A stretch of DNA of 63,729 nucleotides, counting the filler, from Dugesia japonica (Eukaryota): NCBI GenBank assembly GCA_001938525.1. It is 6 parts of 6 records of this genome, joined end to end, with 100 filler letters (N's around TTAATTAATTAA, not from the genome) between each part and the next. Parts side by side here need not be neighbours in the genome. Positions count along the whole stretch, not along the records: positions 1 to 8,554 come from MQRL01619792.1; 5 more parts are not named here. One strand, given 5' to 3'. How positions within the stretch are numbered: position 1 is the first letter of the stretch; each line of letters starts with the position of its first letter. A program made the position numbers and the translations under genes. The notes under the pieces are model-generated. The model was not told the origin of the DNA, made no database searches, and worked only from the letters and a program-made list of their open reading frames with translations. Of the stretch, positions 1 through 48,719 are shown piece by piece.

Positions 1-531
1 TTGCCACAAGGAGGAAGATGTGCAATAAAATTAACAAGTTTACCATATAGACCAAGATACATTTTTATTTGTATTAAAAAAACTGATAGTTCATTTGAAA
101 AGAATAATAATTTATTTATCCAAAAATCTAGTACAATTAAAGAAAATGATAAAAAAGAGAAAGAAACAATTTATCATTATATTAACAGTATTCAGTTAAC
201 ATTAAATAATACAAATTATCCTGCTAATGAATGTAAATTTAGTTTGGTGAATAATGAAATGATTTTCCCTTATATGAATTATGTAAATTGTTGTAGAGAA
301 TTTTTATGTGAACCTCAATTATCATTAATGGATTTTAAAAATTTATATCCAATGTTCTGTTTCGATGACAGTGCACAAGATGAAAAATTAGCAGTTAATA
401 ATGTTGATGTAACTTTAAATATTTCAAAAGATCCCCAATTCCAAGGAAGTTTATGTTGGTGNNNNNNNNNNNNNNNNNNNNNNNNNNNNNNNNNNNNNNN
501 NNNNNNNNNNNNNNNNNNNNNNNNNNNTTAA
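1..531 (+). CDS. Major capsid protein (double jelly-roll), C-terminal part
   Basis: PRYIFIC...NYP...EPQLSLMDFKNLYPMFCFD aligns closely with the C-terminal third of 19140..20480; starts before the window and ends in a gap. Confidence 0.85.
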   Translation: MPQGGRCAIKLTSLPYRPRYIFICIKKTDSSFEKNNNLFIQKSSTIKENDKKEKETIYHYINSIQLTLNNTNYPANECKFSLVNNEMIFPYMNYVNCCREFLCEPQLSLMDFKNLYPMFCFDDSAQDEKLAVNNVDVTLNISKDPQFQGSLCWXXXXXXXXXXXXXXXXXXXXXXX

Positions 532-748
532 AGGAACTGATGTTAATAAATAATGTGGTTCTGAAGGAACCGCTGTTTTATCCTTATATTAAAATTCAAA
601 ATGTAAAATGCCGAGTGTTAAATGTTAATATTTAAAATTCAAATCCAAATTAAACAAAAAGGCCCACTACGTGGACCAATTAAAATTCGAATGTAAAATG
701 TAAAATCTAAAATTCAAAAATCTAAAATTCAAAATTAACAATTAATAA

Positions 749-1498
749 ATGACAACAATAAAGTATAAAAAATACATGTGTGAAAATTGTGGTAAAATTN
801 TAATGATGAAAAATAGATCGAGACATTTAGATTTATGTTTAAATAATGTAAAACAGAAACAGTATGGTAAAAAATCTGGAGGCTCCCATAAAGATAAATC
901 TGGAGGAGATCTTCAATCTAGTAAAATTACTTCTACTTTATTAAAACCATTTACAACAGAAAAATATCCAGGTGAAAGACATTTATTTAAACACAATTAC
1001 ACAGGACCAGGAACACGTTTGGACATTCGCCTTCAGGAGAATTCCGAGAGAATCCTAACACCCAAACCTGGAGAAGAACCAATTAATCGAGTTGACGCAG
1101 CAGCATTGAAACATGACATAGCGTATGCATCTAACGAAATACGCGATCGTCATATCACAGATGTAAACCTGATTCATGATTTAAATAATATTCCAGATCC
1201 AACTACTTCAGAAAAAATACAAAGAACTTTAGTAAAATTAGCAATGAAAGGTAAAATAGTAATTGGACAGGCTATTAGAAAGAGTGTTATTAATAAAGAT
1301 ACTATTAATGAAAATGATGAATCTGGGGACGTAGTCCCCTCATTAAATTCTAATAATATAGAACCTAATAATAAACCACTTGTTAATGAACTTCATAAAG
1401 AATATAGAAAACCAAAACATTTCTTAAAAGTAGTAGTTCATAATAAAGATGATATTTGGTCAGCTGATTTAATTTTAACATTAATGAAAAAACAATAA
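749..1498 (+). CDS. C2HC zinc finger + parvovirus-like phospholipase A2 + start of integrase (interrupted after WSADL)
   Basis: CENC-x12-H-x3-C; HNYTGPGT Ca-loop; DAAALKHDIAY catalytic HD; ELHK...DIWSADL first DDE aspartate; collinear with 20503..21933. Confidence 0.88.
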   Translation: MTTIKYKKYMCENCGKIXMMKNRSRHLDLCLNNVKQKQYGKKSGGSHKDKSGGDLQSSKITSTLLKPFTTEKYPGERHLFKHNYTGPGTRLDIRLQENSERILTPKPGEEPINRVDAAALKHDIAYASNEIRDRHITDVNLIHDLNNIPDPTTSEKIQRTLVKLAMKGKIVIGQAIRKSVINKDTINENDESGDVVPSLNSNNIEPNNKPLVNELHKEYRKPKHFLKVVVHNKDDIWSADLILTLMKKQ

Positions 1499-1506
1499 AA
1501 AAATAT

Positions 1507-1914
1507 TTGAATAAATGGAATATTGATTATAATAAAAGACATTGGGATCCATCTAGAAATTTACAAAGAAATTCACATGGAAGTTTTATTTCTGTAATTG
1601 ATCGATTTGAAAAAAATAANNNNNNNNNNNNNNNNNNNNNNNNNNNNNNNNNNNNNNNNNNNNNNNNNNNNNNNNNNNNNNNNNNNNNAAATAACATTAT
1701 AAAAAATAACATTATAAAAAATAACATTATAAAAAATAACATTATAAAAAATAACAGCACTGTTAAAATTAAAGTTGAAAAAAAAGATATTATTAAAAAT
1801 ATTGGCTGTGTTAATAATACTGTTAAAAAAAATAATGGAGATAAATATAATTTTACTGATTTATTTGAAAATATAGTACAAACAGATAATCTTACAATAT
1901 CATCTTTAGAGTAA
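1507..1914 (+). CDS. Unrelated ORF fragment with (NNIIK)n repeat interrupting the integrase; insertion or misassembly
   Basis: 15-nt tandem repeat aaaaataacattata; frame extends upstream as FNINEKTIKKYLNKW (HTH-like); contains and is followed by gaps. Confidence 0.35.
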   Translation: MNKWNIDYNKRHWDPSRNLQRNSHGSFISVIDRFEKNXXXXXXXXXXXXXXXXXXXXXXXXNNIIKNNIIKNNIIKNNIIKNNSTVKIKVEKKDIIKNIGCVNNTVKKNNGDKYNFTDLFENIVQTDNLTISSLE

Positions 1915-2026
1915 TGGTTATGGTAATGGTTATGGTAATGTAAGGTTTATAGTAATGTAAGGTTTATAGTAATGTNNNNNNNNNNNNNNNNNNNNNNNNN
2001 NNNNNNNNNNNNNNNNNNNNNNNNNA

Positions 2027-2551
2027 GGAACAGAATTTTATAATAAACATTTTAAATCTTTTTGTGATGAAAATCAAATAAATTTATATTCAACTGAAAT
2101 TGAAGGCAAGGCAGTAGTTATTGAAAGATTTAACAGAACTCTTAAAAGTAGATTGTTTAAACATTTTACTGCCGTTGGGAATCAAGATATTACATCTGAA
2201 CNATTAAAAGAAATTGTAAATGATTACAACAATACAATCCATTCATCAATAAAAGTAACACCCCAGGCAGCATCAATGAATCCAGAAATTATCCGGATTC
2301 AGAATGAAAAAAATATGACTGAAAATTATGATTTAAAGGAAAAAGCAAAATTTATGATTGGGGATCGGGTAAGGATTTTTATTATCAAGAAAACATTTGC
2401 AAAGAGTTATACTTTAAAATGGTCAAAGAGAATTTATATTGTTACTAAAATTTATAAAACAAAACCATACACATACCAAGTCAGTAATTTAAATGGTGAA
2501 GAAATTGTTGGAAGATTTTATAGTAATGAACTTCAGAAAACTAATTATTAA
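2027..2551 (+). CDS. Retroviral-type (rve) integrase, C-terminal half, element A
   Basis: Open frame from the gap: GTEFYNKHF...KAVVIERFNRTLK...YNNTIHSSIKVTP...FMIGDRVRI...GRFYSNELQK. Confidence 0.88.
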   Translation, partial: GTEFYNKHFKSFCDENQINLYSTEIEGKAVVIERFNRTLKSRLFKHFTAVGNQDITSEXLKEIVNDYNNTIHSSIKVTPQAASMNPEIIRIQNEKNMTENYDLKEKAKFMIGDRVRIFIIKKTFAKSYTLKWSKRIYIVTKIYKTKPYTYQVSNLNGEEIVGRFYSNELQKTNY

Positions 2552-2699
2552 ATTTTAAATGTTAAATCTAAATATTAAATCTAAGTGTGTCATTCCTAAA
2601 CGATTAATCGTATTAGAATGACACATTAAAATCTAAAATCTAGGATTAACCCAAAGGGACCCAAAAGCCTGCTACGCAGGCATAATTTTTTATAATAAA

Positions 2700-2897
2700 A
2701 TGGATTCAGAGTATTGTTTAGAGATTCAAACACAAATAATAATACTAAAAGAAAAAATATTAGAATGTAATAATGAAGAACTTAATTCTCTTGAATGGAA
2801 ATTAGAAGGATTAATGGAAGAAATAAGAGAACTATTAGCAGAAAAAAATATTACAAGTTTGGCATATGAATCTTATAGAGCTATGGAAAATGATTAA
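2700..2897 (+). CDS. Small acidic coiled-coil hypothetical protein
   Basis: ATG in aaaATG context; flanked by GC hairpins at 2667 and 2901. Confidence 0.55.
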   Translation: MDSEYCLEIQTQIIILKEKILECNNEELNSLEWKLEGLMEEIRELLAEKNITSLAYESYRAMEND

Positions 2898-2996
2898 AAT
2901 AGGAAACGAAGTTTCCTTTGGGGTTAATGTTAATAAGTAAAAATCCAAATCCAAAAATCCAAATATTTTTTATAATTAAAATTCATATCTTAGAAA

Positions 2997-3242
2997 ATGG
3001 TAACCTTTTTTGAAAATAATTTTAATCAGTTAGATTTTATTATTATTGATGAAATTAATCAAGTTGAAATAACTTTTTCCGAGATTGATGATTATTATGA
3101 AGAAATTAAAGAAGAATTAATTTCAATTGGGAAAGATTATGATTATTATCGTTATGTAAAATTAACAAAAAAATTACTGGAAAAATTTCACCAGCGAAGC
3201 AAGCTTATTAAAATCCAAGAAATATTAAATTTTAAATATTAA
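2997..3242 (+). CDS. Small acidic hypothetical protein
   Basis: ORF between integrase and ATPase with aaaATG start. Confidence 0.55.
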   Translation: MVTFFENNFNQLDFIIIDEINQVEITFSEIDDYYEEIKEELISIGKDYDYYRYVKLTKKLLEKFHQRSKLIKIQEILNFKY

Positions 3243-3257
3243 ATACTAGTAATAAAA

Positions 3258-4019
3258 ATGGCTTATGCTTCACAAGTACCAAATCTTATATGGAATAAAA
3301 ACATTACATATTTTAATAATAAAGTTTTACCAAATAATTTTAGATTATTAATTATTGGGTCGTCTGGATGTGGGAAAAATGTACTGTTAATGAAAATGTT
3401 ATTAATACCCGATTTCCTCGATTATGATAATTTAATAATTTACTCTACAACAATAAATCAATTTGAAATACAATTACTTTATATTGGTTTTGAAAATGGA
3501 TTAACTAAAAAAGAAATAATTTCAATGTTTCAAAATCAACATTTAGTTCCTGAATCTTGTATAACTCCATATCAAGTTTATGATTTTTATATTTCTAAAA
3601 AAATGATAACTAAAAAACCAAGATCCATTAATGTTACTTTAAGTAATAAACCAAATGAAATTATTTCTTGTGATAAACTTTCAAAGGATAAGAAAAATTT
3701 AATAATCTTTGATGATGTGGTTAATGAGAAAAATCAAGAANNNNNNNNNNNNNNNNNNNNNNNNNNNNNNNNNNNNNNNNNNNNNNNNNNNNNNNNNNNN
3801 NNNNNNNNNNNNNNNNNNNNNNNNNNNNNNNNNNNNNNNNNNNNNNNNNNNNNNNNNNNNNNNNNNNNNNNNNNNNNNNNNNNNNNNNNNNNNNNNNNNN
3901 NNNNNNNNNNNNNNNNNNNNNAGTATGATCACGAAGTTAATCTTCACTGGAAGACCAAGTATAATTATTTTTATTTAAATAAAGAAAGTGATGAATTGTT
4001 AGATGATTTATTTGATTAA
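3258..4019 (+). CDS. FtsK-HerA/A32-like genome packaging ATPase
   Basis: Walker A GSSGCGKN, Walker B LIIFDD; homologous to 22187..23002; internal gap. Confidence 0.92.
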   Translation: MAYASQVPNLIWNKNITYFNNKVLPNNFRLLIIGSSGCGKNVLLMKMLLIPDFLDYDNLIIYSTTINQFEIQLLYIGFENGLTKKEIISMFQNQHLVPESCITPYQVYDFYISKKMITKKPRSINVTLSNKPNEIISCDKLSKDKKNLIIFDDVVNEKNQEXXXXXXXXXXXXXXXXXXXXXXXXXXXXXXXXXXXXXXXXXXXXXXXXXXXXXXXXXXXXXYDHEVNLHWKTKYNYFYLNKESDELLDDLFD

Positions 4020-4030
4020 ATATTTGCTGA

Positions 4031-4160
4031 AATCCAAATGTTAAATCCAAATGTTAAATCCAAATGTTAAAATCCAAATGTTAAATCCAAATGTTAAAAT
4101 CCAAATGTTAAATCCAAATGTTAAATCCAAATGTTAAATCCAAATGTTAAAATCCAAAAA
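4031..4160. repeat. Tandem 13-14-nt repeat (aaatccaaatgtt[a]) between convergent genes
   Basis: About nine copies read directly. Confidence 0.9.
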
Positions 4161-4190
4161 TTGGGTCCCTTTGGGGTTAAAATCCAAAAT

Positions 4191-5129
4191 CTATTCTAAA
4201 GCATTAGTTTCACCTTGAGTTATTGCAGTAAATTTACTTTGTAAAACACTTTTTACCTCTGGGAAATTATTTTGAATTTTAGTGAATGACCAATTTGATT
4301 TTAAAATTTGTGGGTAATCTAATGCCAATTTAGTAAATTTAATCATTTTGTTTACATAATTAATTTTATATCTTATTCCAAGATTTTCTAAATTATCTTC
4401 AAAATCTTTAGAAGTTTCAAATTTATTTTTCATTTTTTCTAATGTTAAACCCAACTTTGCAGTATTAACTAAAGTGTATTTATTAATTGTTAATATTTTA
4501 GAATATCTTTTTTGTGCATCAATATTTAATTCTTTTAATTCCTCATCATCACTATCATCACTATCACTATCATCACTATCACTATTATGTTTTTTATCTT
4601 TTATTGCTAATTGATTAATTTTAGGAATTACATTAACCAGTGATTTTTCAAAACTTTTTTTAGCATTTTCAACTTCCAGTTCTTTTTGTTTAGTTTTAAA
4701 AAGTTTAATTGTATACTTATCCAGCATATTATATTTTTTTAACTCATCTCTAACTTTAAAAGCGTCTCCTTGATTTCTTACAAGATATTCACCTTCATCT
4801 GGCATTACTTGAATATCAACTGAGTCATCTGAAGAAAGTCTACTTCTATAAGCATAAGGTTTATCCATTTCTGGATCATAATTGTAAAGTGATTTATTTG
4901 GTTGAGATTTTGATTGTTTAGGACTTGTTCTATTATGACTTGATTTTTTATGACTTGATTTTTTATGACTTGTTCTATTATGACTTGTTCTTTCATTACT
5001 TGTTCTTTCATGATTTGATTTTTTCTTTTTATTCTCTTCTTTATATTTATCAAAGAAACAATTTTTTTCACCGACCCTAACCCATTTTTTATAAAGATCA
5101 TCCATTTTCTCTAGAAACAATTTAATCAT
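4191..5129 (-). CDS. Hypothetical protein with low-complexity N-terminus and helical C-terminal domain shared with 23149..23559
   Basis: SKDFEDNLENLGIRYKINYVNKMIKFTKL...SFTKIQNNF vs SKDFIKYXKKIGINFSTNYINKLIRFSKL...TFSMITNNF. Confidence 0.75.
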   Translation of the reverse strand: MIKLFLEKMDDLYKKWVRVGEKNCFFDKYKEENKKKKSNHERTSNERTSHNRTSHKKSSHKKSSHNRTSPKQSKSQPNKSLYNYDPEMDKPYAYRSRLSSDDSVDIQVMPDEGEYLVRNQGDAFKVRDELKKYNMLDKYTIKLFKTKQKELEVENAKKSFEKSLVNVIPKINQLAIKDKKHNSDSDDSDSDDSDDEELKELNIDAQKRYSKILTINKYTLVNTAKLGLTLEKMKNKFETSKDFEDNLENLGIRYKINYVNKMIKFTKLALDYPQILKSNWSFTKIQNNFPEVKSVLQSKFTAITQGETNALE

Positions 5130-5150
5130 ACGATTGTTCCGATCGGAACA

Positions 5151-5558
5151 TTAAAAATCTAATTCCAAATCATTAAGAGCTCTTTCAATTTCGGATTCAT
5201 ATTCATNNNNNNNNNNNNNNNNNNNNNNNNNNNNNNNNNNNNNNNNNNNNNNNNNNNNNNNNNNNNNNNNNNNNNNNNNNNNNNNNNNNNNNNNNNNNNN
5301 NNNNNNNNNNNNNNNNNNNNNNNNNNNNNNNNNNNNNNNNNNNNNNNNNNNNNNNNNNNNNNNNATTCCATATCCATTTTCACATTCAAATATTGATCCA
5401 TAATAATTCATATTTTTTTTATTTTTCATTTCACCAATAATTCTTATTACATCAATTAAATTATTTTTAAAATGTTTAAAAAAATAATCATTATCATCTT
5501 GTGGTAATAATGATATTTCAATTACTGCTTCATTTAAAATATTAATAAGAGCATCCAT
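5151..5558 (-). CDS. Hypothetical protein (gapped)
   Basis: ORF spanning an N gap; frame across the gap uncertain. Confidence 0.5.
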   Translation of the reverse strand: MDALINILNEAVIEISLLPQDDNDYFFKHFKNNLIDVIRIIGEMKNKKNMNYYGSIFECENGYGXXXXXXXXXXXXXXXXXXXXXXXXXXXXXXXXXXXXXXXXXXXXXXXXXXXXXXEYESEIERALNDLELDF

Positions 5559-5758
5559 TATTCTTATGTTACTATGCTATTACTTTACTATGCTATTTAT
5601 TCTAATAAAATTATGGCAGCGAAGCTTCCTTTATTAATGTTAAATGCTGAATGTTAAATGCGATTAATCGCACTTAGGTTTCGCATTTACATTTCGCACT
5701 TAGGTTTCGCATTTACATTTTGCATTTACATTTCGCACTAAAATCTAAGATTAATAAA

Positions 5759-6220
5759 ATGACAGATTATAATTTAATAGATTTCCTAAAAACTTTTGGA
5801 ATTAATACAACTACAAATTTTGATTTATATTCAATAGCAGATTTTTTAAATTTAGATTTGGAAATTTGTATGAAGAATGAAATTTTAAAGTTAAATGGGG
5901 AGCATGCTCCCCTTGTAAATAATACAAATGAGAATGGTAAACCGTTCCCCCAAAATTATATCTTTAATTATCAAAATCAAAATCAAAAAGGAACACATTG
6001 GACATGTTTTTCTAATGGATTTTATTTTGATTCTTTTGGATTAAAACCATTAGAAAATATTGAAAAATATACCAAGAAATATAACGAAATTCAGGTTCAA
6101 CATTTTGGTACGAGAATATGTGGAATTTTATGCATTTATTTTTTATACAAGATTTCACATGTTGGGTTTAATGATATTATTTCGGAAATGAAAAAATTAT
6201 ATGATTTAATAAAGAATTAG
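5759..6220 (+). CDS. Adenain-like cysteine maturation protease
   Basis: GTHW, FYFDSFG, Q...CGILC catalytic H/D/Q/C motifs; start MTDYNL chosen by alignment with element B. Confidence 0.92.
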   Translation: MTDYNLIDFLKTFGINTTTNFDLYSIADFLNLDLEICMKNEILKLNGEHAPLVNNTNENGKPFPQNYIFNYQNQNQKGTHWTCFSNGFYFDSFGLKPLENIEKYTKKYNEIQVQHFGTRICGILCIYFLYKISHVGFNDIISEMKKLYDLIKN

Positions 6221-6390
6221 TCTGCGAAGCAGGCCTGTTTAATCTTAAATATTAGTATTTAAATCTAAAATCCTAATACAATTAATCGTATCGGAATTTA
6301 ACATTTAAATTTGAGATTTAACATTAACATTTGAGATTTAACAAATAAAGGAAGCTTCGCTTCCTAATATTATTATTATAAAAATAGGCT

Positions 6391-8196
6391 ATGAATAAAT
6401 TTGGGCAAACTAAAAGAAATATAAATTCAAGACAAATATTAAAAAAAGTTGATGCTAAGATATTAATTTCAGAATCTAAAAATGAAAATAAATTTGTTAA
6501 TGAAACTGGAGATACAATAAAATCTTTAAAAATATTAGAAGATCCTATACAACCCAATGATGCTGTTAATTTACAATACATTAAAAAGTTAGAAGATAAG
6601 TTAGCAAAGTTAGAAAAGTTAGAAAAGTTAGAAGATAAGTTAGCAAAGTTAGAAAATAAGTTAGAAAATAAGTTATTTGAGATAATTAATGAAAATAATA
6701 ATCTTAAAAAACATGATAAAATTAATAATGAAATTAAAAAAATAAGAGTAGAAATATTTCCATATAAAAAAACGGATTTAATAAATAAAACAATTGAATT
6801 CCAACCATTACATTCACACCAAATATTAGGAAAAAGAATTGTAGATTTATTAAATAAAATTAATCTTTCGGATGATGATATGGATAAGAAAACTTTTGAT
6901 AAATTTTTATCAGATATTGAAGAATTTAAAAATAAAATAAAATCTTATGAAATGGAGATTGATCCTTTAATCAAAGAATTTGAAAGAATAAAAAATCAGA
7001 TGCACGAAATCGAGACTAAGAAAATTAATACTTTAATTCAAGAATTTAGAAAAAGTAAATCTGAATCTGCTTTGTATAAATTAAAACAAATAATTTATAA
7101 TTATTTTCCATTACTTGATAAAACAAATAATAATATTGGTGAAATATTTTTCTTAATCCATATAAATCCAAATCCACACCCATTTTTGGGTTTTAATAAT
7201 CTTATAACTAATTATGAATTTAGAAGAAATGGAGAACTTATTTTAACAGGTGATAATACAAAAATTTGGGTTAGTAAAGAGCCTTTAATAATTGTTTTAT
7301 ATGCAAGTTTTCCTAAACTTTTAAATATTAAAATTAAGGGTTATGATTTTTTACAAGTTAAAGTTCATGAATTTATTATACAAATTAATGGTGTTGAAAA
7401 GAAATTAAAATATAAGCTTGCTCCAAGATTTACTTTTTTTGAAACAATAAATTCAATTACTCCTCCACAAGTTATTAAAATAATATTACCAGCACATTAT
7501 TCTTTTGAAGAATTAATTGTGAAAAGTGGAATTAGTGAAAAAGATAAATTATTATTAGAATTTGAAAAAATAAAATCACTTCTTCACAAAAGTTATTTTC
7601 AAACTCTTGATAATTTAATCAAAGAATATAGTGGAAATAAAGATGAAAATAGTTATACAAAAATAAAAAACATGGTTGAAAACTATTTAGTATATTTCGA
7701 TATTAAAGATTTAATACAACCAAAATATATGAAAACTGTAATTTTTATTGTTGGTGTTACTGAAAAAAATAGAAATCTTCCAGGGTTTTCATTTTCAAAT
7801 CCAGTTGGTGGCAATGTATTTACATTTAATTTTAAAAGAAACACAAAAAAGATAATTGGAACAGAAATTTTATTTTTTTATCTTATAGATCCTTTTGAAA
7901 TTGAAATAACTGGATATTTTATTCAACCCATTTATTTTATATTTAGAGGATATTATAAAAAAGGTGAATTTGAAATTTGTATACAATTTGATTCTCAAGA
8001 CAAAAGAATATTTAAATATACTCACTCTACTAATAATTATATTAATATTTTCAAATCAAGTTCAAATGTTTTAATAACGAGAGATCCAATTAAAAAAATA
8101 AAAATAGAAATTACAAACAATATTTACTTGAATAGTATTGTAATTATGAAAGATGAAAAATTGGCAAAAGATTTTCATTCACATTTTATTCTTTAA
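6391..8196 (+). CDS. Putative fibre/receptor-binding protein, 601 aa
   Basis: FVNETGDT...DP...DAVNLQYI motif typical of viral fibre/stalk proteins, a coiled coil, then two ~195-aa tandem modules; function inferred. Confidence 0.65.
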   Translation: MNKFGQTKRNINSRQILKKVDAKILISESKNENKFVNETGDTIKSLKILEDPIQPNDAVNLQYIKKLEDKLAKLEKLEKLEDKLAKLENKLENKLFEIINENNNLKKHDKINNEIKKIRVEIFPYKKTDLINKTIEFQPLHSHQILGKRIVDLLNKINLSDDDMDKKTFDKFLSDIEEFKNKIKSYEMEIDPLIKEFERIKNQMHEIETKKINTLIQEFRKSKSESALYKLKQIIYNYFPLLDKTNNNIGEIFFLIHINPNPHPFLGFNNLITNYEFRRNGELILTGDNTKIWVSKEPLIIVLYASFPKLLNIKIKGYDFLQVKVHEFIIQINGVEKKLKYKLAPRFTFFETINSITPPQVIKIILPAHYSFEELIVKSGISEKDKLLLEFEKIKSLLHKSYFQTLDNLIKEYSGNKDENSYTKIKNMVENYLVYFDIKDLIQPKYMKTVIFIVGVTEKNRNLPGFSFSNPVGGNVFTFNFKRNTKKIIGTEILFFYLIDPFEIEITGYFIQPIYFIFRGYYKKGEFEICIQFDSQDKRIFKYTHSTNNYINIFKSSSNVLITRDPIKKIKIEITNNIYLNSIVIMKDEKLAKDFHSHFIL

Positions 8197-8198
8197 AA

Positions 8199-8554
8199 AT
8201 GAATGAAGAAAGTTTATATCCAAATTTAGATGAGAGTAAAAACTTTACAATTTTAGATTTAAAAAATAAATTAGCATTATCTAGGGTTAAGGATTTTGAG
8301 AATGATTTATTCTTTATAAAAGATAAAATTAATCATTATAAAAAAATTCATAGAAGATGNAATAGAATTGATTCAAGTATTAAAATTACACAAATAGTAG
8401 TTTCTGCAGGAATTGGGATTGCCGGTGTCATTTTGATTGCCCCAATTGGAGTGCCTTTGGCAACAATCAGAATTCCTATTTTGACTGGGGCAATTTCAGT
8501 CCTGCCTGTAATAGGGACAATAAATTCATCAGTAATAAAAAGTAGAAAAGAGAG
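8199..8554 (+). CDS. Polinton membrane protein (GasderminX/PW-like), 3' truncated
   Basis: LYPNL N-terminus, coiled coil, Gly-rich hydrophobic hairpin; homologous to 23838..24430; family name from recollection. Confidence 0.65.
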
Positions 8555-8654
8555 NNNNNNNNNNNNNNNNNNNNNNNNNNNNNNNNNNNNNNNNNNNNTT
8601 AATTAATTAANNNNNNNNNNNNNNNNNNNNNNNNNNNNNNNNNNNNNNNNNNNN
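8555..8654. other. Artificial contig spacer
   Basis: 44 N + TTAATTAATTAA (stops in six frames) + 44 N. Confidence 0.97.
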
Positions 8655-22186: not shown

Positions 22187-23002
22187 ATGTCAGTGTTCAG
22201 TTCGCAAAAAGCAGTGTTCAGTTCGCAAAAAGCAGTGTTCAGTTCGCAAAAAGCAGTGTTTATCTGGAACAATAATATTACAAAATTTAATAATAAAATC
22301 TTACCAAATAATTTNAGATTATTAATTATTGGATCTTCAGGTTCAGGTAAAAATGTATTACTTATGAAAATGTTATTAACACCTCATTTCTTAGATTATG
22401 ACAATTTAATCATTTACTCAACAACAATCTCACAATTTGAAATTCAATTGTTATATCTCGGATTTGAATCTGGCCTTTCAAAAGAAGATATTAGTTTAAT
22501 ATTCCAACATCAAAATATAGTACCTAAGAATATAGATACACCATCTCAAGTTATACAATATTTCATTGACAAGAAACTAGTAACAAAGAAAAATAGAACA
22601 ATAAATATAACATTAAGCAATAAACCAGATGAAATAATCTCATGCGACAAGTTATCAAGAGACAAGAAAAATCTTATAATTTTCGATGACGTTGTTAACG
22701 AGAAAAATCAACAAATTCAGAAATCATATTTCACACGTGGAAGACATTCAAATTGTAATGTTATTTATATCTCCCAAACATATTACGATCTAGATAAAAA
22801 TTCTATACGTAATAATTCGAATTGTTACATTTTCTTCAAATTAAATAAAACTGATAAAAATAATGTTTATCATGAATTATTTTCAAATATTTTTAATAAN
22901 NNNNNNNNNNNTGATTATGAAGTTAATCTTCACTGGAAAACTAAATATAATTATTTTTATCTTAACAAAGAAACTGATGAATTACTAGATGACTTATTTT
23001 AA
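22187..23002 (+). CDS. FtsK-HerA/A32-like packaging ATPase
   Basis: GSSGSGKN, LIIFDD, TRGRHSN, ISQ; N-terminal 21-nt repeat (VFSSQKA)x3; ORF track start 22154. Confidence 0.95.
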   Translation: MSVFSSQKAVFSSQKAVFSSQKAVFIWNNNITKFNNKILPNNXRLLIIGSSGSGKNVLLMKMLLTPHFLDYDNLIIYSTTISQFEIQLLYLGFESGLSKEDISLIFQHQNIVPKNIDTPSQVIQYFIDKKLVTKKNRTINITLSNKPDEIISCDKLSRDKKNLIIFDDVVNEKNQQIQKSYFTRGRHSNCNVIYISQTYYDLDKNSIRNNSNCYIFFKLNKTDKNNVYHELFSNIFNXXXXXDYEVNLHWKTKYNYFYLNKETDELLDDLF

Positions 23003-23113
23003 ATGTTAGATTTGAAATGTTAGATTCGAAATGTGAAATGTTAGATTCGAAATGTGTAATGTTAAATGTTAGATTTGAAATGTTAGATTTGAAATGTTAG
23101 ATTCGAAATGTGT
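23001..23113. repeat. Tandem (gaaatgttagatty) repeat between convergent genes
   Basis: Direct reading. Confidence 0.85.
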
Positions 23114-23148
23114 AATCTTCACTGGAAACTGATGAACTTTTAGATGAC

Positions 23149-23559
23149 TTATTCTAATATAAAAGATTCAATTGTTAAATTCATAAGTGACTTTATACCA
23201 GTTCGTGTCATTTTAATTCCAGGAAATTTAATTATTTTATTATATTTCCCATAAATTAAATTTGCTATTTCAATTTGATCTTCATGCCATTCAAAATTAT
23301 TTGTTATCATGCTAAATGTGTTATTAATATTTATAATACTATTACATTTATCAACTAATTTTGAAAATCTAATTAATTTATTTATATAATTTGTACTAAA
23401 ATTAATTCCAATTTTTTTNAAATATTTTATGAAATCTTTAGAGTTTAAATTTAAATGTTTTTGATATTCAATTAAACAATTTCCTTGTTGAGCGCGCAAA
23501 AGTAATGTTTTTAAATTATCAATCGCATATTTAGTATAATTATAAATATTTTCAGCCAT
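23149..23559 (-). CDS. Hypothetical helical protein, homologue of the C-terminus of 4191..5129
   Basis: Manual alignment and same position convergent with the ATPase. Confidence 0.7.
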   Translation of the reverse strand: MAENIYNYTKYAIDNLKTLLLRAQQGNCLIEYQKHLNLNSKDFIKYXKKIGINFSTNYINKLIRFSKLVDKCNSIININNTFSMITNNFEWHEDQIEIANLIYGKYNKIIKFPGIKMTRTGIKSLMNLTIESFILE

Positions 23560-23612
23560 TTTAGAGGTGTTAATTTTAACATTATAATTTCATATCAATT
23601 GTCATTTCAACA

Positions 23613-23888
23613 TGTTAAATCAGTAGTCATGGTATTCTTTTTAGTCATTGTATTCTTTTTAGTCATTGTATTCTTTTTAGTCATTGTATTCTTTTTAGTC
23701 ATGGTATTCTTTTTAGTCATGGTATTCCTAGCTTAAGGCACATTTCATTAATAACTTTATTTTGATTCTTGTCGTGTATCGCTTTGCTCCCATTCTTATG
23801 ATAAATGTTAAATCAGTAGTCATTGTATTCTTTTTAGTCATGGTATTCCTAGCTTAAGGCGCATTTCATTAATAACTTTATTTTGATT
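23613..23888. repeat. Direct duplication of the membrane-protein 3' end plus ~18-nt tandem repeat (gtcatkgtattcttttta)
   Basis: 23613..23768 vs 23805..23888. Confidence 0.8.
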
Positions 23889-24430
23889 TTCAACTAATAA
23901 TTTTAAATTATTATCTTTAGATTTCTTATGTCCACTGATCAATTCATGTACATCATTCACCATCTTTTTACTAATATTTAACTCTTNNNNNNNNNNNNNN
24001 NNNNNNNNNNNNNNNNNNNNNNNNNNNNNNNNNNNNNNNNNNNNNNNNNNNNNNNNNNNNNNNNNNNNNNNNNNCTTTCTTTTCTAGATTTAACAAATGA
24101 AGTGTTCATTGTTCCAATTACAGGTAAAACTGAAATTGCTCCTGTTATCACTGGGATACCAACTGTTGTAATAGCTATCCCAACTGGAGTTATAAATACA
24201 ATTCCAGCTATTCCAATTCCAGCTGAAATAAGTATCTGTGTATATTTAATTCCAGTATCAATTTTATTCCATTTCTTTTCTAATTTCTTATAATGTTTAA
24301 NTTTATCTTTAATATAATACAAATCATTTTCAAAATCTTTAATTCTAGATAATGCAAGTTTATTTTTTAAATCTTGAATTGTATATTCACTGTTATCTCT
24401 TAGACTAGGATAAATATTTTCAGGTTCCAT
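23838..24430 (-). CDS. Polinton membrane protein (GasderminX/PW-like)
   Basis: IYPSL, coiled coil, hydrophobic hairpin; after the gap an open frame ELNISKKMV...MRLKLGIP* probably supplies the true C-terminus. Confidence 0.68.
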
Positions 24431-24546
24431 TTATTAAGTGTAAAATTTTAACATTTAACATTTCAAGTGTAAAATTTATAGTTATCATCTCTAAATGCGC
24501 TATGCTGACCGTTGGACAGACTAGGATAAAATTGTATGGTGTCCAT

Positions 24547-26340
24547 TTAAAATATTATTACACTACTAATAAAAATATCTTTTGGTAAAGTTAATTCTAT
24601 AAAATTAGCTGACAATGGAAACTTTTCTATTTTAAATACTTTATCAATAGCAGGCTCAATATATTCTTTTCTTCCTTTATTTAATTTAATGTAATATTTA
24701 AAACTTTTCATAGAATAACCTTCTATATTTAATGAGTTAGCATTTTTTGTAAACTTTAAAGAGATAACAAAAGGTTCTTGAAGATAATAATATGGGGAAT
24801 CATTCAAGATAATAATTTTACCTTTTCTTTTGAAATCTATTCTTTCTATTTCTTTACTTTTAATATAATAACAAGCAAGGTTTGTATGTAGATCTAGATC
24901 AAAACCTATATTTAAAATCAGAAAATAAAATGAAAACATAGAATATTCACCTTTAAATTCTATGTAATTATCAATTATTTCTTTTGCACTTTTAAGTGAT
25001 AACTCATCATAAGTTTTCATTAAAGTATCAATTCTTTTAATATGTGATATGTGAAATTTTTTATTTTTATATTCTTCTTTTAATTCTTCAAGCAATTTTA
25101 ATTTATATAAATTAACATTTATTTCTGACAGTTGAATATTTTCTGGTAAAATTATTACAATATAATTTATATTAGTATCACTAGTAATTTCACTACTTTC
25201 ACGATGAATATTAATATTTCCAGATTCAGGTTTTACATATGAAAATGACACTGCAAGATGATTAATTCTAATGACATATGTAAACTTTTTATCAGTTTTA
25301 CCTTTAATATTTATACTAATTTTTTCATTTACTTTTGTATATAAATGAATTTCTAAAGGTTTATTAAAACTAAACATTCCAGAGTCAAAATAAATAGTTA
25401 AACCTTTATTTTTTAAATTAAAATCATTAAAATATTTATCTATAAGAGAATAACAAGGTGATATGTTAAAGAACATTGAAAATATTTTATAACTAGCTGC
25501 CCTTGTGGTTGTTACATGTGAATATTGTATGTTAGTATCAATTAATTCTTTTAGAAGATTATATGATGAATCTGAAAGTGTTTCTTTATATTTTTTAAAT
25601 GAAAGATTAATTTTGTCAGAATATATTTTATGTTGTCGCGGATTTACTTTTCCAATTTCAGAAGTTAATTTTGAGATTATAGGTCTATATTTTTCAATAT
25701 AAATTTTAAGATTATCAATGGAAATTATATTGAGATCATATGTTTTCTTGTTGATATCATCATGTAATTTGTTAAGTGCGATATTTAATTCTTCAATTTC
25801 TTTTTTAATCTTCAATGAATCAAGAGTATCTAATTTTTCTAATTTATTCAATAGATCACTTTTTTTATATGCAAACAGTTCTTGTTTTAATCTTTTAATC
25901 TCACTGTTGATATTATCAAATGTTAGTTGGTTACAGTTTTTTGTTAATTTTTGAATTTTATTATTTAAACCTGAAATATCAACATTTAAAGTTTTTAATT
26001 CTGAAATTTTAGATTCTAAATATAACTTGTTAGCTAAAAAACTATCAACTTTTAATAATCTATTGAAAATTATTTCATGCTTCTGTAATTTTTCTTCTAA
26101 AGATTTTATATATTTTAAATTATTTTCTTCAAGAGATTTAATATATTTCAAATTAACTGCATCTTCTAGATCTTTTGGGTCATCTTTTATTTTTAGACAG
26201 GTTATTGTATCACCTGTTTCATTTACATATTTATTTTCATTTGTCGCATCTAAGGTTCTAATTTTTGCATCTACATTTTTTAATATTTCAGTTGAATTGC
26301 TAGAATTAGGTGTTGCACCAAACTTATTCATTTTTAACAT
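24547..26340 (-). CDS. Putative fibre/receptor-binding protein, 597 aa
   Basis: YVNETGDT...DDP...DAVNLKYI; two tandem helical+beta modules; homologous to 6391..8196. Confidence 0.65.
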   Translation of the reverse strand: MLKMNKFGATPNSSNSTEILKNVDAKIRTLDATNENKYVNETGDTITCLKIKDDPKDLEDAVNLKYIKSLEENNLKYIKSLEEKLQKHEIIFNRLLKVDSFLANKLYLESKISELKTLNVDISGLNNKIQKLTKNCNQLTFDNINSEIKRLKQELFAYKKSDLLNKLEKLDTLDSLKIKKEIEELNIALNKLHDDINKKTYDLNIISIDNLKIYIEKYRPIISKLTSEIGKVNPRQHKIYSDKINLSFKKYKETLSDSSYNLLKELIDTNIQYSHVTTTRAASYKIFSMFFNISPCYSLIDKYFNDFNLKNKGLTIYFDSGMFSFNKPLEIHLYTKVNEKISINIKGKTDKKFTYVIRINHLAVSFSYVKPESGNINIHRESSEITSDTNINYIVIILPENIQLSEINVNLYKLKLLEELKEEYKNKKFHISHIKRIDTLMKTYDELSLKSAKEIIDNYIEFKGEYSMFSFYFLILNIGFDLDLHTNLACYYIKSKEIERIDFKRKGKIIILNDSPYYYLQEPFVISLKFTKNANSLNIEGYSMKSFKYYIKLNKGRKEYIEPAIDKVFKIEKFPLSANFIELTLPKDIFISSVIIF

Positions 26341-26355
26341 ATGAATTTTAACATG

Positions 26356-26799
26356 TTAACATTTTAACATATCTAATTTATCATATAAATCTAACATTTC
26401 AGATATTATATTCCCGAAGGTCAGCTCAGCGCCAGTGTTAAATTCTTTAGTTTTAAGTGAATATAAAAAATAAATACATAAAATGCCACATATTTCAGTG
26501 TTAAAATGTTGCACTTGAATTTTATTATAAACTTTTACATGTTCTTCGATTTCATCTAAAGGTTTTAAACCAAAAGAATCAAAGTAATAACCATCGTGAT
26601 AAGCAACCCAATGTGTTCCGAGTTGATTCGAATTTTGATAATTAAAAATGTAATTTGTTTTAGTGTTAAGTGTAACATGCTCATTTTTCATATAAATTTC
26701 TAACCCAAGATCTAAGAAGTCAGCGATAGAATATAAATCAAAATTTGTTGTTGTGTTGATTCCAAATGTTTTTAGAAAATCTAATAAATTATATGCCAT
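26356..26799 (-). CDS. Adenain-like cysteine protease
   Basis: GTHWVAY, YYFDSFG, VQ...CGILC; start MAYNLL chosen by alignment with element A (ORF track start 26838). Confidence 0.93.
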   Translation of the reverse strand: MAYNLLDFLKTFGINTTTNFDLYSIADFLDLGLEIYMKNEHVTLNTKTNYIFNYQNSNQLGTHWVAYHDGYYFDSFGLKPLDEIEEHVKVYNKIQVQHFNTEICGILCIYFLYSLKTKEFNTGAELTFGNIISEMLDLYDKLDMLKC

Positions 26800-26852
26800 T
26801 GTCCGAAGGTGAGTGTAGCGATTTTTTAAATATAACATTTAGATGTTAAATA

Positions 26853-27631
26853 TTACAATCGATATTTTCTTAGATGAGCTAAAATTGTAATAGTTTCTTT
26901 GTTAAAATCTATCGTGTTAAAGTTTTCATCTACAACNTTAAATTTAAAATTGTCAATGTAATCTGTATTGATTTTAGAATAAATAGGTGGAGATGGACGT
27001 TCTAGAATTTTATATCCAAATGGAACTGTATTAATTGGAAATGAATATAAGAGATTAATTTTTTCTGTTCTTCCAGAGTTGGTTAAATAGTTACCTTTGA
27101 CAATGTTACATTTATCGCGTTAATATTTGAAATGTTAATTTTATCATCTGAATAATGATCTCCTGGAGGATAAGATCCAGGTTTAAATCCTAGCATCGTA
27201 TGAAAAAATGATTTGTTATCAAATTCTATTGTAACTTTAGTTTTAATGTTACATTTAGATGTTGCAAGATCAGGTTTAATTTCTATATATTTTTCTAGTC
27301 TAGTTGACATTTCTTTTATTTCATATGATCCAGGTTCTAGAGATTTTTCACCTGGAGGTATAATTACTTCTATTTCTTCTATTTCTTTTTTGATTTTAGA
27401 TTTAGATCTTTCTTCTCCTTCGGCCTTTATGGCTTTTGTGGATATTTCTTGTTGTTTCAAATATTTTCCAGAAGCATGAAATTTATTATTTAAACTTGTA
27501 ATATTAAAAATAATATTGTAACATGAAAAATATAACAATCCAAGTTCATATTCTGAATCTAATTTTATAGGATAATCTAAATTAATTTTTAAATCTTGTT
27601 CTGTTCCAACTACTAAGAATTGATGAGACAT
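26853..27631 (-). CDS. Minor capsid protein (penton), split by a frameshift at ~27110
   Basis: YPIKLD.EYELGL, PGSYEI, LGF; the -1 frame continues CNIVKGNY...LYSFP...GYKILERP...IDFNKETITILAHLRKYRL*. Confidence 0.85.
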
Positions 27632-27645
27632 TTTGTTTAGATGAA

Positions 27646-27783
27646 AAATGTTACTTGTTACTTATTGAATATTAAATGTGGAATGTTGGATGTAAAATGC
27701 GGAATGTTACTTGTGGAATGTTAAATGCGGAATGTTACTTGTGGAATGTTACTTGTTGAATGGGAATGTTACTTGTGGAATAT
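27646..27783. repeat. Degenerate tandem (gaatgttacttgt) repeat
   Basis: Direct reading. Confidence 0.8.
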
Positions 27784-28664
27784 TACTTGAAATATTTAGA
27801 TTTATATTTTTTATAAATAATATCTGATAATAAACCTTTAGATTTTAATTGTTTACATATAGATTTAACTTCAGATCCTAGATTATTATGTCCAGATTTA
27901 ACAGCTGAAATTAATAATGTTAACTTTTCAAATAATGCAATTGGATTTCCTTTTCCTTCCGCTTCTGCTTCTGCCATTAAGGTCTTTATAACTTTTTCTC
28001 CACTTCTTTTTCTAGTTTTTGTGGGTGGATTTATTATTGCATGTAAAAATCTAATATAATCATTAGTAACTGGTGAATTTTTTACTAAATCATTTAAATA
28101 TATTTTAATATAATTTTTCATTTCTTCAGAATTATCTCTTGTTATTTTTTCTTTATTTCCACACATTATATCTATAATTTTTTCTGAATATTCATGAATT
28201 TTTCCATTGACTGAAAAATGTGGTTTTTCTTTTATTTTAAAGAAAAATATAAGTGTATTATCTGAAATTAATATTCTTAAATATGACTTACCAATTTCGA
28301 ATTCCGCTGGAGCAGGTATAGGTTTTATTTTTCCTTTTATTATATTAGTATCAATTTTTATTTCAGGATGAAATGGGGTTGTGGTTTCTTCGGATAATAA
28401 ATCAGCGAGTGCACCATCTTTCAAAGTTAATTCTAATTTATATTTTTTTTTATTATAAGTTGAATATTTTCCTTCTAAAGTTTCTTCTTTTTCTATTTGT
28501 TCTGGTTTTATGGTTTTTTCTATTGCAGAGATGGTTGGTTGTTGTAAAGTTGTGAGGTCAGATTGTAAAGAATAATAATCTTGCACTTTAGAACAAAAAA
28601 ATATATTATAATCTTCTTGTGCTTTAATTAATGCTCTTAAATCTTTAATTCTTTGTTCTACCAT
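27783..28664 (-). CDS. Conserved Polinton hypothetical protein
   Basis: C-terminal NPIALFEKLTLLISAVKSGHNNLGSEVKSICKQL resembles the RLxLL..AGN..NEI..I..EL domain I recognise from Mavericks. Confidence 0.65.
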   Translation of the reverse strand: MVEQRIKDLRALIKAQEDYNIFFCSKVQDYYSLQSDLTTLQQPTISAIEKTIKPEQIEKEETLEGKYSTYNKKKYKLELTLKDGALADLLSEETTTPFHPEIKIDTNIIKGKIKPIPAPAEFEIGKSYLRILISDNTLIFFFKIKEKPHFSVNGKIHEYSEKIIDIMCGNKEKITRDNSEEMKNYIKIYLNDLVKNSPVTNDYIRFLHAIINPPTKTRKRSGEKVIKTLMAEAEAEGKGNPIALFEKLTLLISAVKSGHNNLGSEVKSICKQLKSKGLLSDIIYKKYKSKYFK

Positions 28665-28675
28665 TTTATAAAGAT

Positions 28676-28777
28676 TTAATATTTAACATTTAACATTTAA
28701 CATTTAACATTTAATATTTAACATTTATCATTTAACATTTAACATTTATCATTTAATATTTAACATTTAATATTTAA
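28676..28777. repeat. 7-nt tandem repeat (atttaac)
   Basis: About 14 degenerate copies. Confidence 0.85.
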
Positions 28778-28884
28778 AGAACAATAATATTTATTATAAT
28801 TTTCTTGATTTTTAATTAATTTTTTTAAATCTTCAATTCTTTTTTCAATAATTGTTATTTTCAGCATTTTATAAAGAATTAATA

Positions 28885-29439
28885 TTAAACATCATCTGAT
28901 TTTTGTGAATTATATGGATTTAGAAATATACCTTTTCCTTTCTTACTTATGTATGTTCCAGATTTAAAATTTTTAGTTAATAATTTAAATTTAGGATCAA
29001 TATTTTTTAAATACTTGTGGATTGCTGTTCCTTGATAAGGATTTAGAAATACACCTCCTGAACCTTGATATGGATCTCGAAATACTCCTGTTCCAGATGC
29101 TGTAGCTGATGATGATGTTGTTGTGTTGTTATTTGGTTGCTCTTTTATTAATTTTTGCTTTTGTAATTCAACTAATTCGATTTCTTTTTGTTTTTTAATT
29201 GCATCTTTTGAATTTGAAACTGTACCTGCAACATTAGATGCAATTCCTGTTGCACCCGCTAAAGCACCAATTACCCATGGAATAGCAGCTAAGAATGCAA
29301 ATCCACCTTCAGAATGTTTTTTTATAGCTTCATCTTTAACTTTTTTAGAAATATAATAATTTTTACCGTTGATCTTCACAGATTTACATTTTCTAGAATT
29401 TATAATTTTTTCTAATTCTTCTTCTGTTGCTTCTGACAT
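28885..29439 (-). CDS. Adenovirus pX/mu-like (cupiennin-like) core protein precursor
   Basis: EGG|FAFLAAIPWVIGALAGATGIAS resembles adenovirus pX GG|ILPLLIPLIAAAIGA.PGIAS; three G.F..PY repeats. Confidence 0.7.
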   Translation of the reverse strand: MSEATEEELEKIINSRKCKSVKINGKNYYISKKVKDEAIKKHSEGGFAFLAAIPWVIGALAGATGIASNVAGTVSNSKDAIKKQKEIELVELQKQKLIKEQPNNNTTTSSSATASGTGVFRDPYQGSGGVFLNPYQGTAIHKYLKNIDPKFKLLTKNFKSGTYISKKGKGIFLNPYNSQKSDDV

Positions 29440-29489
29440 TATGTGGCTTCTTCCTTTATGGTTTTATCGCTATTTTATAATATCATTAT

Positions 29490-30767: not shown

Positions 30768-30867
30768 NNNNNNNNNNNNNNNNNNNNNNNNNNNNNNNNN
30801 NNNNNNNNNNNTTAATTAATTAANNNNNNNNNNNNNNNNNNNNNNNNNNNNNNNNNNNNNNNNNNNN
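30768..30867. other. Artificial contig spacer
   Basis: 44N-TTAATTAATTAA-44N. Confidence 0.97.
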
Positions 30868-35399: not shown

Positions 35400-36040
35400 T
35401 TGCAGAGACCAGTCGAAATACCAATCTCGCATTCGACCAGGGAGCGATAAATGAGTGTTCGATGATGAGGTGATTTAAAAGTTTTACAGTTGAGTATGAG
35501 ACCCTGGAAGATGGATAAATTCGTCGACGTCGAATTTTCACGAATAATGAAAAATTGAACGACTTGATTAAGGCAGATCCGCGCACAACTATTTGATAGC
35601 TTGTCCAACAGTTATATGTCAGTAGCAATTATTAATTATCTCAAACAATTGAACCAAGTGAAGAAGCTTGATAAATGGGTGCCGCATAATAAGTGAAAAT
35701 GAAAGTCGGTGTTTTGAAATCTGCTTGTTGCTTATTCTCCAGAATATCTACGATCATTTCATCAACCAGATAGTAAATTGTGATTAAAAAGTGGATATAT
35801 GATAACCACAAGCGTTCTGCGCAGAGAAAAGATCATGATCAATCTCCAAAACCGTGGTCATCCAAAGAAGATTGTAGTAAGCGTTTGGAAGTATTCTGAA
35901 AGCATTATTTATTTTAACCTTCTGTCTACTGGTGAAACTATTACAACAGACAAATACTGTAAAGATATCGATGAAATGCATAAAAAGTGGCAACTTCTTC
36001 ATCAGCTTTGGTCAATTGTTCTTCATGACAATGTGAGAAT
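35400..36040 (+). mobile_element. Decayed mariner transposase
   Basis: KLDKWVPH, GETITTDKYCKDIDEM, IVLHDN across frameshifts. Confidence 0.85.
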
Positions 36041-42983: not shown

Positions 42984-43083
42984 NNNNNNNNNNNNNNNNN
43001 NNNNNNNNNNNNNNNNNNNNNNNNNNNTTAATTAATTAANNNNNNNNNNNNNNNNNNNNNNNNNNNNNNNNNNNNNNNNNNNN
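42984..43083. other. Artificial contig spacer
   Basis: 44N-TTAATTAATTAA-44N. Confidence 0.97.
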
Positions 43084-48205: not shown

Positions 48206-48676
48206 ATGAATTGTAATGGATGTAATATTGAAATGTTGTGGGATTCTGGAGCATCAATAACAGTGATGAGTGAAGAAAATTGGATTCGAATTGATGCGCC
48301 TAGAATGATAAAGTCAGAAGTTAGATTGTCAGGCGTTTTTTCTTCAAAACGTGAATCATGTCTTGATAAGATATTTGTAGAGATTGTATGGAACAAAAAA
48401 CGTTTGATGAAAGAAATTTTGGTTGTTGAAAGTATTTTGCCTGGTTTTATTGGAGGAATTGATATGATGAAATTATNTGGAGTATTCTTGGCAGAAGTAA
48501 AATTGATTGATTCTTCTGAAGTAAATACAACATATTCAGATTGTGATCGTGTTAAGACGGCATTGAATTATGTTGCTAACAGAACTCCATTTATTGAAAA
48601 TCTTATTAGGAAATATGGATCAATTTTTAGAGCATCCAAATTTGATTTAGGAATTACTACATTAGCATCAGATTAA
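48206..48676 (+). pseudogene. Retrotransposon aspartic protease
   Basis: LWDSGASIT...IGGIDMM. Confidence 0.85.
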
Positions 48677-48719
48677 TACCAAAGGACCTCCGATTTCTCA
48701 GAATTCAAGAAGACAACTA

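Follow-up and report, generated by a model that had tools for sequence, protein, structure and literature searches.

The window, a stretch of 63,729 nucleotides (nt), filler included, from the Dugesia japonica assembly GCA_001938525.1, is AT-rich eukaryotic sequence whose pieces are joined by N runs and N-flanked linkers. It carries two related Polinton-like elements, termed here A (1-8606) and B (17837-30767). Element A contains short hairpins with a GNA triloop, nearly all of them between genes, whose stems covary, whose wobble pairs favor one strand, and whose orientation follows that of the adjoining genes. The hairpins are real and ordered and are most simply explained as one directional DNA-hairpin signal with a putative function. 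An identical 12-nt linker with stops in all frames lies between N runs at 8599-8610, 17781-17792, 30812-30823, 43028-43039, and 52588-52599; the window is thus a concatenation, and A and B are not necessarily neighbors. Element A starts before base 1 and reaches a gap at 8555, while B takes up a whole piece between two linkers. Since both stop at the window edge or at N-linker gaps, neither shows a visible end, where a Polinton has terminal inverted repeats and a 6-bp target duplication, or a junction with host DNA.

Both elements carry the Polinton (Maverick) gene set of double jelly-roll capsid, A32 ATPase, adenain protease, and rve integrase, assigned in B by Pfam (capsid, E = 3e-19; rve, 7.6e-13; A32 ATPase, 4.4e-8; adenain protease, weak at 0.048) and in A by homology to B. 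Their shared genes are about 69 to 76% identical in nucleotide sequence, and the protease-fiber block of A is inverted relative to B. An open reading frame (ORF) at 29490-30767 in B, whose motifs we take to be of the PolB type, had no match in Pfam, PHROGs, or PDB; the corresponding region of A would lie outside the window. Genes of element A are as follows.

1-553, plus strand: 3′ part of the major capsid protein (double jelly-roll), with an N gap; the stop at 553 is placed by homology across that gap
749-2551, plus strand: PLA2-like domain fused to an rve integrase, interrupted
2700-2897, plus strand: 65-amino-acid (aa) acidic ORF with hairpins 2667 and 2901 on either side; no significant Pfam family
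3258-4019, plus strand: A32-type packaging ATPase, with an N gap and a long hairpin at neither end
5151-5558, minus strand: 135-aa acidic ORF with an N gap, downstream of hairpin 5615
5759-6220, plus strand: adenain-like protease (Pfam E = 0.031 plus homology), without a start-side hairpin
6391-8196, plus strand: 601-aa ORF without a family match, probably fiber-like to judge from a motif that we take to be of that kind

The integrase of A is broken by a stop at 1498, followed by unrelated or N sequence to about 2026, so this copy of the element is probably inactive. The hairpins are listed below by coordinates.

557-571, plus strand: GAA loop closed by T-G, with the GNA on the sense strand, center 11 nt past the probable capsid stop at 553 (placed across the N gap)
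661-677, minus strand: GTA loop on the template strand, center 80 nt upstream of ATG 749, T-G wobble on the GNA strand
1325-1339, plus strand: GTA loop on the sense strand, within the PLA2/integrase linker
2667-2681, minus strand: GTA loop on the template strand, center 26 nt upstream of ATG 2700
2901-2917, plus strand: GAA loop on the sense strand, center 12 nt past stop 2897; its flank motif is common with 2667, inverted
3194-3200, plus strand: two-pair mini-hairpin GC-GAA-GC within an 81-aa ORF, 45 nt upstream of its stop; uncertain member
5615-5629, plus strand: GAA loop with one true mismatch, on the template strand of the minus-strand ORF starting at 5558, center 64 nt off
6220-6234, plus strand: GAA loop on the sense strand, stem starting within the stop codon of the protease, GNA strand with a T-G wobble
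6350-6364, minus strand: GAA loop on the template strand, center 34 nt upstream of ATG 6391, inner five pairs equal to those of promoter P2 of phage N4

An earlier note on this DNA had reported seven C-GNA-G hairpins in A. All seven are present and on the strands it assigned; the hairpin at 557-571 is an eighth copy that it lacked. In a palindrome scan that required a C-GNA-G loop and a six-pair stem with at most one mismatch, with 200 dinucleotide shuffles as the control, element A gave 7 hairpins against a shuffle mean of 0.155 (largest, 2; none of the 200 reached 7). Element B gave 1 (0.245 expected). The 41 kb outside the elements gave 2, with 1.7 expected. Among triloop hairpins with at least three G-C pairs, the C-GNA-G loop accounts for 7 of 9 in A and 0 of 12 outside the elements. 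Even with no pairing rule imposed, the 15-letter pattern G-N4-C-GNA-G-N4-C picks exactly the seven in 63.7 kb (1.57 expected; 1 of 100 shuffles reached 7). Six of seven centers are intergenic, the intergenic fraction of A being 12.7% (P = 2.6e-5). The claim that the hairpins stand at gene boundaries is upheld for position, but hairpin 1325 lies inside the PLA2-integrase ORF, 583 nt from the nearest start, and most gene ends are bare: of the nine starts and nine stops visible in A, hairpins mark 4 and 3, respectively. GC-rich perfect 16-nt palindromes with 4-nt loops also occur in A, at 5135-5150 (abutting the 135-aa stop) and 5897-5912 (in a protease stretch missing from B).

A gap-free alignment of the eight hairpins gave pairing in 47 of 48 stem cells, and four of the six pairs vary on both sides. 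The covariation score was 0.923, compared with 0.240 for shuffled sequence, with 16 double-sided changes; this control is generous because the sites were chosen as hairpins. The outer pair, G(-7)/C(+7), is invariant and in the same orientation in all eight, so the view that structure and not sequence is conserved holds for the covarying stems but fails at this fixed pair. The C-G closing pair of the loop is found in 7 of 8 copies and a GTA loop in 3 of 8. At the second stem position, four copies have G-C, three have A-T, and the T-G-closed copy has C-G.

Several features bear on which nucleic acid folds. Four stem cells depart from Watson-Crick pairing. Three of them read T-G on the GNA strand and C-A on its complement; the fourth, in 5615, pairs on neither. 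The wobble in 661 lies on the template strand and is therefore unusable by sense RNA. According to the accessible part of PMC13037366, GNA is the only one of 64 triloops that gives an ultra-stable DNA mini-hairpin, and RNA counterparts are far less stable, the figure there being given for a GAAA octamer. Together, the T-G wobbles and the ultra-stable loop suggest that the GNA strand probably folds as DNA. Each loop retains a CpG, although the observed/expected (o/e) CpG ratio of A is 0.53. UNCG and GNRA RNA tetraloops were rejected since the loop register is off by one. The wobbles, the d(GNA) loop, the non-RNA register, and the retained CpG point to a DNA hairpin formed by the GNA strand and recognized by a protein. 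The d(GNA) mini-hairpin is marked by an abnormal melting point and by resistance to nucleases. DNA energies from ViennaRNA, a model not designed for the GNA loop, gave no strand difference for perfect stems. An Rfam scan of 1-31000 returned three weak matches, none within hairpins and none near the gathering score. Sigma-70 promoters were also considered and rejected (68 found, 64.1 expected).

By a nearest-boundary rule, all four start-side copies in A (26 to 80 nt before an ATG) have GNA on the template strand, and all three stop-side copies (7 to 12 nt past a stop) have it on the sense strand; polarity therefore fits 7 of 7 intergenic hairpins, 557 included. The strands reported earlier for the copies before ATGs 749, 2700, 5558, and 6391 and for those after stops, 2901 and 6220, are correct, and the eighth copy agrees with them. 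The earlier polarity count left out copy 1325, which is inside an ORF and on its sense strand. The chance of the six-copy polarity is about 0.03 (2 × 0.5^6), a figure that loses weight since 5615 and 6350 stem from a single duplicated module (62 nt, 82% identity). The sample comprises eight sites in A, which is damaged, and four in the related element B, and the copies are not independent. An alternative fold at 5131-5145, 9 nt upstream of ATG 5129 and with its GAA loop on the sense strand, would break the rule; it was not counted because its closing pair is G-C (reversed). The seven copies obey a single rule, in which the GNA strand has its 5′ side towards the adjoining ORF. Since start-side and stop-side copies have a common stem geometry and common flanks, the polarity of the proposed start/stop punctuation code stands in this small sample but two separate signals are not needed. 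Apparently, a single directional element, present in either orientation, makes up both the “start” and the “stop” type.

Part of this polarity is accounted for by symmetry in the spacers. Three intergenic inverted repeats were found in A.

2561-2650, no strand: long imperfect inverted repeat centered at 2605.5 on an ATTAAT dyad, past the integrase stop and upstream of hairpin 2667 (z = -4.95; 0 of 200 shuffles)
5636-5693, no strand: imperfect inverted repeat about an ATTAAT dyad at 5664.5, between the divergent genes (1 of 200 shuffles)
6239-6327, no strand: long imperfect inverted repeat centered at 6283, between hairpins 6220 and 6350 (0 of 200 shuffles)

The spacer 6220-6364 forms an inverted repeat of 145 nt, its fold being a long stem with a hairpin to either side (z = -4.43), so hairpins 6220 and 6350 are opposite in polarity by symmetry; this spacer and the repeats at 2605 and 5664 are the source of the symmetric share. 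A fold of the whole divergent region around 5664 was not significant (z = -1.52). Three of seven spacers tested in A, and one of seven in B, are self-complementary; spacer 574-660, which separates 557 from 661, is not, as 116 of 200 shuffles scored at least as well. In addition, 2542-2649 matches 6347-6239 at 75%. The three inverted repeats on an ATTAAT dyad each lie 42 to 74 nt from a start-side hairpin center, and they are a possible binding site for a dimeric factor. A TTAACCC..AAAGG flank lies by hairpin 2667 (2646-2664) and, inverted, by 2901 (2918-2929); it also stands alone at 4161-4180, past the stop of a 312-aa ORF (95% over 20 nt).

Element B carries shorter versions of the loop. Seven two-pair S-C-GNA-G-S cores were found there, with 0.38 expected, and a 21-nt double mini-hairpin motif is present in four copies that are identical at 14 to 17 of 21 positions, the best matches outside the elements reaching 14 to 15.

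19120-19140, plus strand: ends at the capsid ATG, with template-strand GNA
24498-24518, plus strand: 29 to 49 nt past the fiber stop, GNA on the sense strand
26411-26431, minus strand: in the 3′ end of the protease gene, about 80 nt upstream of the fiber ATG, polarity ambiguous
26800-26820, minus strand: ends at the protease ATG, with template-strand GNA

The note had likened the template-strand GNA before ATGs in A to that in B. Three of the four B copies fit the polarity; 26411-26431 fails the nearest-boundary rule. The protease stop is 61 nt downstream of that copy, whose GNA is on the template, and it fits only if it is assigned to the fiber start, 86 nt away. A further double mini-hairpin, GC-GTA-GC plus GCC-GGA-GGC on the sense strand, lies at 20668-20690 in the 5′ part of the PLA2-integrase ORF of B, between short-repeat copies.

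We regard a Polinton cis-element resembling the early promoter of phage N4, a directional template-strand DNA hairpin read by a protein, as the best single explanation and give it a probability of roughly 40%. In N4, the early promoter is a template-strand hairpin with a C-G-closed GNA loop in which some stem bases are fixed and others free; the hairpin is extruded by supercoiling, and +1 lies eleven bases from the loop center (accessible part of PMC4496689). The P1 and P2 hairpins were seen in the N4 genome record; these promoters serve a T7-like virion RNA polymerase. The cis-element of A would consist of a six-pair stem with a fixed outer G-C pair and an ultra-stable d(C-GNA-G) cap, and it would fold as DNA on one strand only, either by cruciform extrusion or in the single strand produced by strand-displacement replication. 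A protein would then read the hairpin as a start site, with synthesis starting about 10 to 12 nt from the loop center on the 5′ side of the GNA strand. Where GNA lies on the template, the hairpin would drive the downstream gene, with leaders of about 15 to 70 nt. Post-stop copies would be the same element inverted, with synthesis beginning at the stop codon and directed back into the gene, and might stop read-through, either through collision or as a roadblock, or give rise to antisense RNA. Folding at the DNA level and recognition by a protein are what we infer from the anatomy; the idea of an RNA polymerase or initiation factor as the reading protein, supplied by a helper virus or by the host, is speculative. 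The four start-side copies have the N4 architecture on the template strand, namely, a hairpin of 5 to 7 bp with a three-nucleotide G..A loop closed by C-G. That the whole lineage is transcribed from extruded DNA hairpin promoters by an N4/T7-like or other polymerase from helper or host, with inverted copies as terminators, seems to us improbable.

A number of results weigh against the N4-like interpretation. No RNA polymerase family was found among 27 ORF pieces (Pfam) or 16 (PHROGs) from the two elements, both of which are cut by gaps, and no unassigned ORF is long enough to encode such an enzyme. The bases specific to N4 are poorly represented: the loop-center purine is present in 5 of 8 copies, -8G in 4 of 8, and both in 3 of 8. 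The +1C, 11 nt from the loop center, is present in 0 of 8, and the hairpins are therefore not N4 promoters as such. Four of the eight copies would point antisense. The ATPase and protease starts have no upstream hairpin, and 5 of 9 visible starts of A are bare. A(-12) and T(-10), each present in 7 of 8 copies (p = 0.005 before correction for about 60 columns), are weak after multiple testing and, in stop-side copies, overlap the stop-codon context. Finally, long stems with the A-type signature were not found in B, though the shared genes are about 70 to 76% identical.

The same hairpins could act instead as intrinsic RNA terminators or insulators in RNA of the GNA-sense strand, with post-stop copies ending the mRNA and pre-start copies ending antisense read-through. 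We hold this to be unlikely. The three stop-side centers lie just past stops, and their RNA energies (-8.9, -6.4, and -7.2 kcal/mol) are comparable to the median of -7.5 given for terminators of yeast virus-like elements (VLEs) in the accessible part of PMC6211774. The T-G wobbles suit RNA too, and a hairpin-plus-T-tail rule is passed on the GNA strand by 5 of 8 copies (2 of the 3 stop-side copies). However, the same rule is passed on the opposite strand by 4 of 8, and 23% of intergenic positions have such a tail, so T-tails are uninformative on termination. In addition, the loop is neither UNCG nor GNRA in register, four copies precede ATGs with GNA on the template, and the VLE terminators, as described in the portion of PMC6211774 available, have no common sequence motif, whereas the A hairpins have a common loop and outer pair.

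A more doubtful account holds that the hairpins are single-strand replication signals, mini-hairpins resistant to single-stranded-DNA-binding protein that recruit a primase or restart factor on the displaced strand and are intergenic because coding sequence excludes them. The geometry is the same as for a promoter, with synthesis towards the 5′ side, and copies lie on both strands (five plus, three minus). Such mini-hairpins mark the primase sites of phage G4 and of RSF1010 ssiA, and the B motif holds the CC-GAA-GG core named for ssiA (accessible part of PMC13037366). Against this, no primase ORF was found by Pfam among the 27 ORF pieces, and gene-linked polarity in 7 of 7 copies is not predicted. 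Moreover, protein-primed strand displacement is not known to require internal priming.

Improbable, finally, are GC-rich palindromes, whether selfish or neutral, that multiplied through local duplication and snap-back inversion, of the sort known as GC clusters in AT-rich fungal mitochondrial DNA, with polarity a by-product of symmetric intergenic repeats: the 5615/6350 module, the 2542-2649 match, the three self-complementary spacers, the other-loop palindromes at 5135 and 5897, and the copy within an ORF linker would suit them, but the stems change in compensation while loop and outer pair stay fixed, wobbles favor one strand, hairpins stand at both ends of just one of three long inverted repeats, and the 574-660 spacer lacks symmetry.

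Other observations concern the elements and their surroundings. A parvovirus-type PLA2-like domain is N-terminal to the rve integrase in both elements (749-2551; 20503-21933), and the linker of this fusion holds a sense-strand GNA hairpin in A (1325) or a core in B (21042). Clusters resembling the capsid are eukaryotic and viral. The CpG o/e ratio is 0.53 in A, 0.57 in B, and 1.00 in the rest of the window; this depletion of A (1-8606) and B (17837-30767) suggests past methylation or a different host. Near the left end of B, a 116-aa ORF (18431-18781) has a predicted helix-turn-helix at residues 3 to 48 (predicted local distance difference test [pLDDT] scores of 76 to 92), making it a candidate DNA-binding regulator; its fold had no structural match at E ≤ 0.001. 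The C-terminal 194 residues of the 312-aa ORF of A have one weak homolog and a poor model (pLDDT, 45.7) and are homologous to a 136-aa ORF of B; as no more than a lead, part of the 312-aa ORF resembles clusters from Mucoromycota. Intergenic arrays of short degenerate repeats lie at 4030-4160, 17975-18415, 23001-23115, 27640-27790, and 28680-28775; the repeats resemble AAATGTT/AAATCC or, at the left end of B and at 5570-5600 in A, TAGCA. At the gene starts of A and B, TA(2-4)ATG is found in 12 of 22, compared with 116 of 845 ATGs overall; this resembles poxvirus-type initiators but is also an AT-rich Kozak context. Outside the elements, an intronless 292-aa ORF on the minus strand (38023-38901) has a single homolog at 69% identity and belongs to no family. 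Decayed transposon-like coding remnants at 35400-36400, 46900-50100, 54300-56650, and 60200-61950 are, as we take them by eye, mariner-, gypsy-, and pogo-like.

Relatives were sought by alignment and in the literature. None of 42 candidates from prokaryotic genome contigs held up for the capsid. For the ATPase, 1 of 109 did, a weak match to a bacterial metagenome-assembled genome that was judged unrelated and rejected (38-residue match, 40% GC). The capsid had no counterpart in phage and plasmid collections, where all matches were of the IS3 transposase type, and the spacer 6200-6400, used as a query, matched nothing beyond short AT-rich stretches attributable to chance. GNA-loop hairpins at Polinton gene boundaries were absent from the titles and abstract openings screened, a set that includes few subscription papers. 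The word “hairpin” is absent from the main text of PMC8502044 (on adintoviruses), PMC8547959, and bioRxiv 10.1101/2024.03.25.586562, while PMC11296320 and PMC12085832 mention hairpins at genome ends only.

Polintons lack an RNA polymerase of their own; in most lineages they may be transcribed by a host enzyme or with the aid of a helper virus. Virophage-helper pairs have been recognized through common cis-signals (accessible parts of PMC8547959 and PMC6723459). The 15-letter signature picks exactly these sites and so predicts transcript 5′ or 3′ ends within a few bases of them; it is also searchable in large DNA viruses as a way to find a helper. If the promoter reading is true, DNA-hairpin promoters are not limited to N4-like phages, and a promoter type described for bacterial phages only in the literature examined would operate in a eukaryotic cell.

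Among known systems, elements A and B resemble Alpha adintoviruses with PLA2X in their double jelly-roll capsid, A32 ATPase, adenain-like protease, rve integrase, and PLA2-like domain and are set apart from them by the fusion of that domain to the integrase. Like the signals of virophages and their helpers (3′ RNA hairpins of Sputnik and Mimivirus, in the accessible part of PMC6723459; the TCTA promoter of CroV and Mavirus), the A hairpins are cis-signals at gene boundaries in a small double jelly-roll element without an RNA polymerase. Those signals and the CATTA 3′ RNA hairpins of IIV-6 (accessible part of PMC5923455) are, however, 3′-end RNA hairpins or linear promoter motifs, and those portions of the sources describe neither a fixed GNA triloop nor a template-strand hairpin. 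The IIV-6 TAATG/CATTA motif (a 22- to 56-nt hairpin) is in none of the eight short hairpins, and the 2586-2626 stem is one base off. The terminators of the yeast VLEs pGKL1/2 belong to related protein-primed linear replicons and, as far as the available text of PMC6211774 goes, are short stem-loops near stops with similar energies; the VLEs, however, encode their own RNA polymerase, their stem-loops share no motif, and in A the loop and outer pair are fixed and half of the copies stand before starts. With the d(GCGNAGC) mini-hairpins of G4 and ssiA, the A hairpins have in common the C-GNA-G loop and, in 4 of 8 A copies and the short copies of B, a GC-GC or CC-GG core; they differ in lying at many gene boundaries with gene-linked polarity, not at one origin, and in having A-T as the second pair in 3 of 8.

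From N4 the A hairpins differ in a six-pair core in place of five, in GTA loops in 3 of 8, in the inversion of half of the copies, and in their setting, a eukaryotic element in which no polymerase gene was seen. The inner five pairs of 6350 are those of N4 P2, which may be convergence on the most stable core; this equality was rejected as a sign of descent. Like N4 P1 and P2, nevertheless, they combine a short GC-rich, partly fixed stem with a C-G-closed GNA loop on the template strand, upstream of genes.

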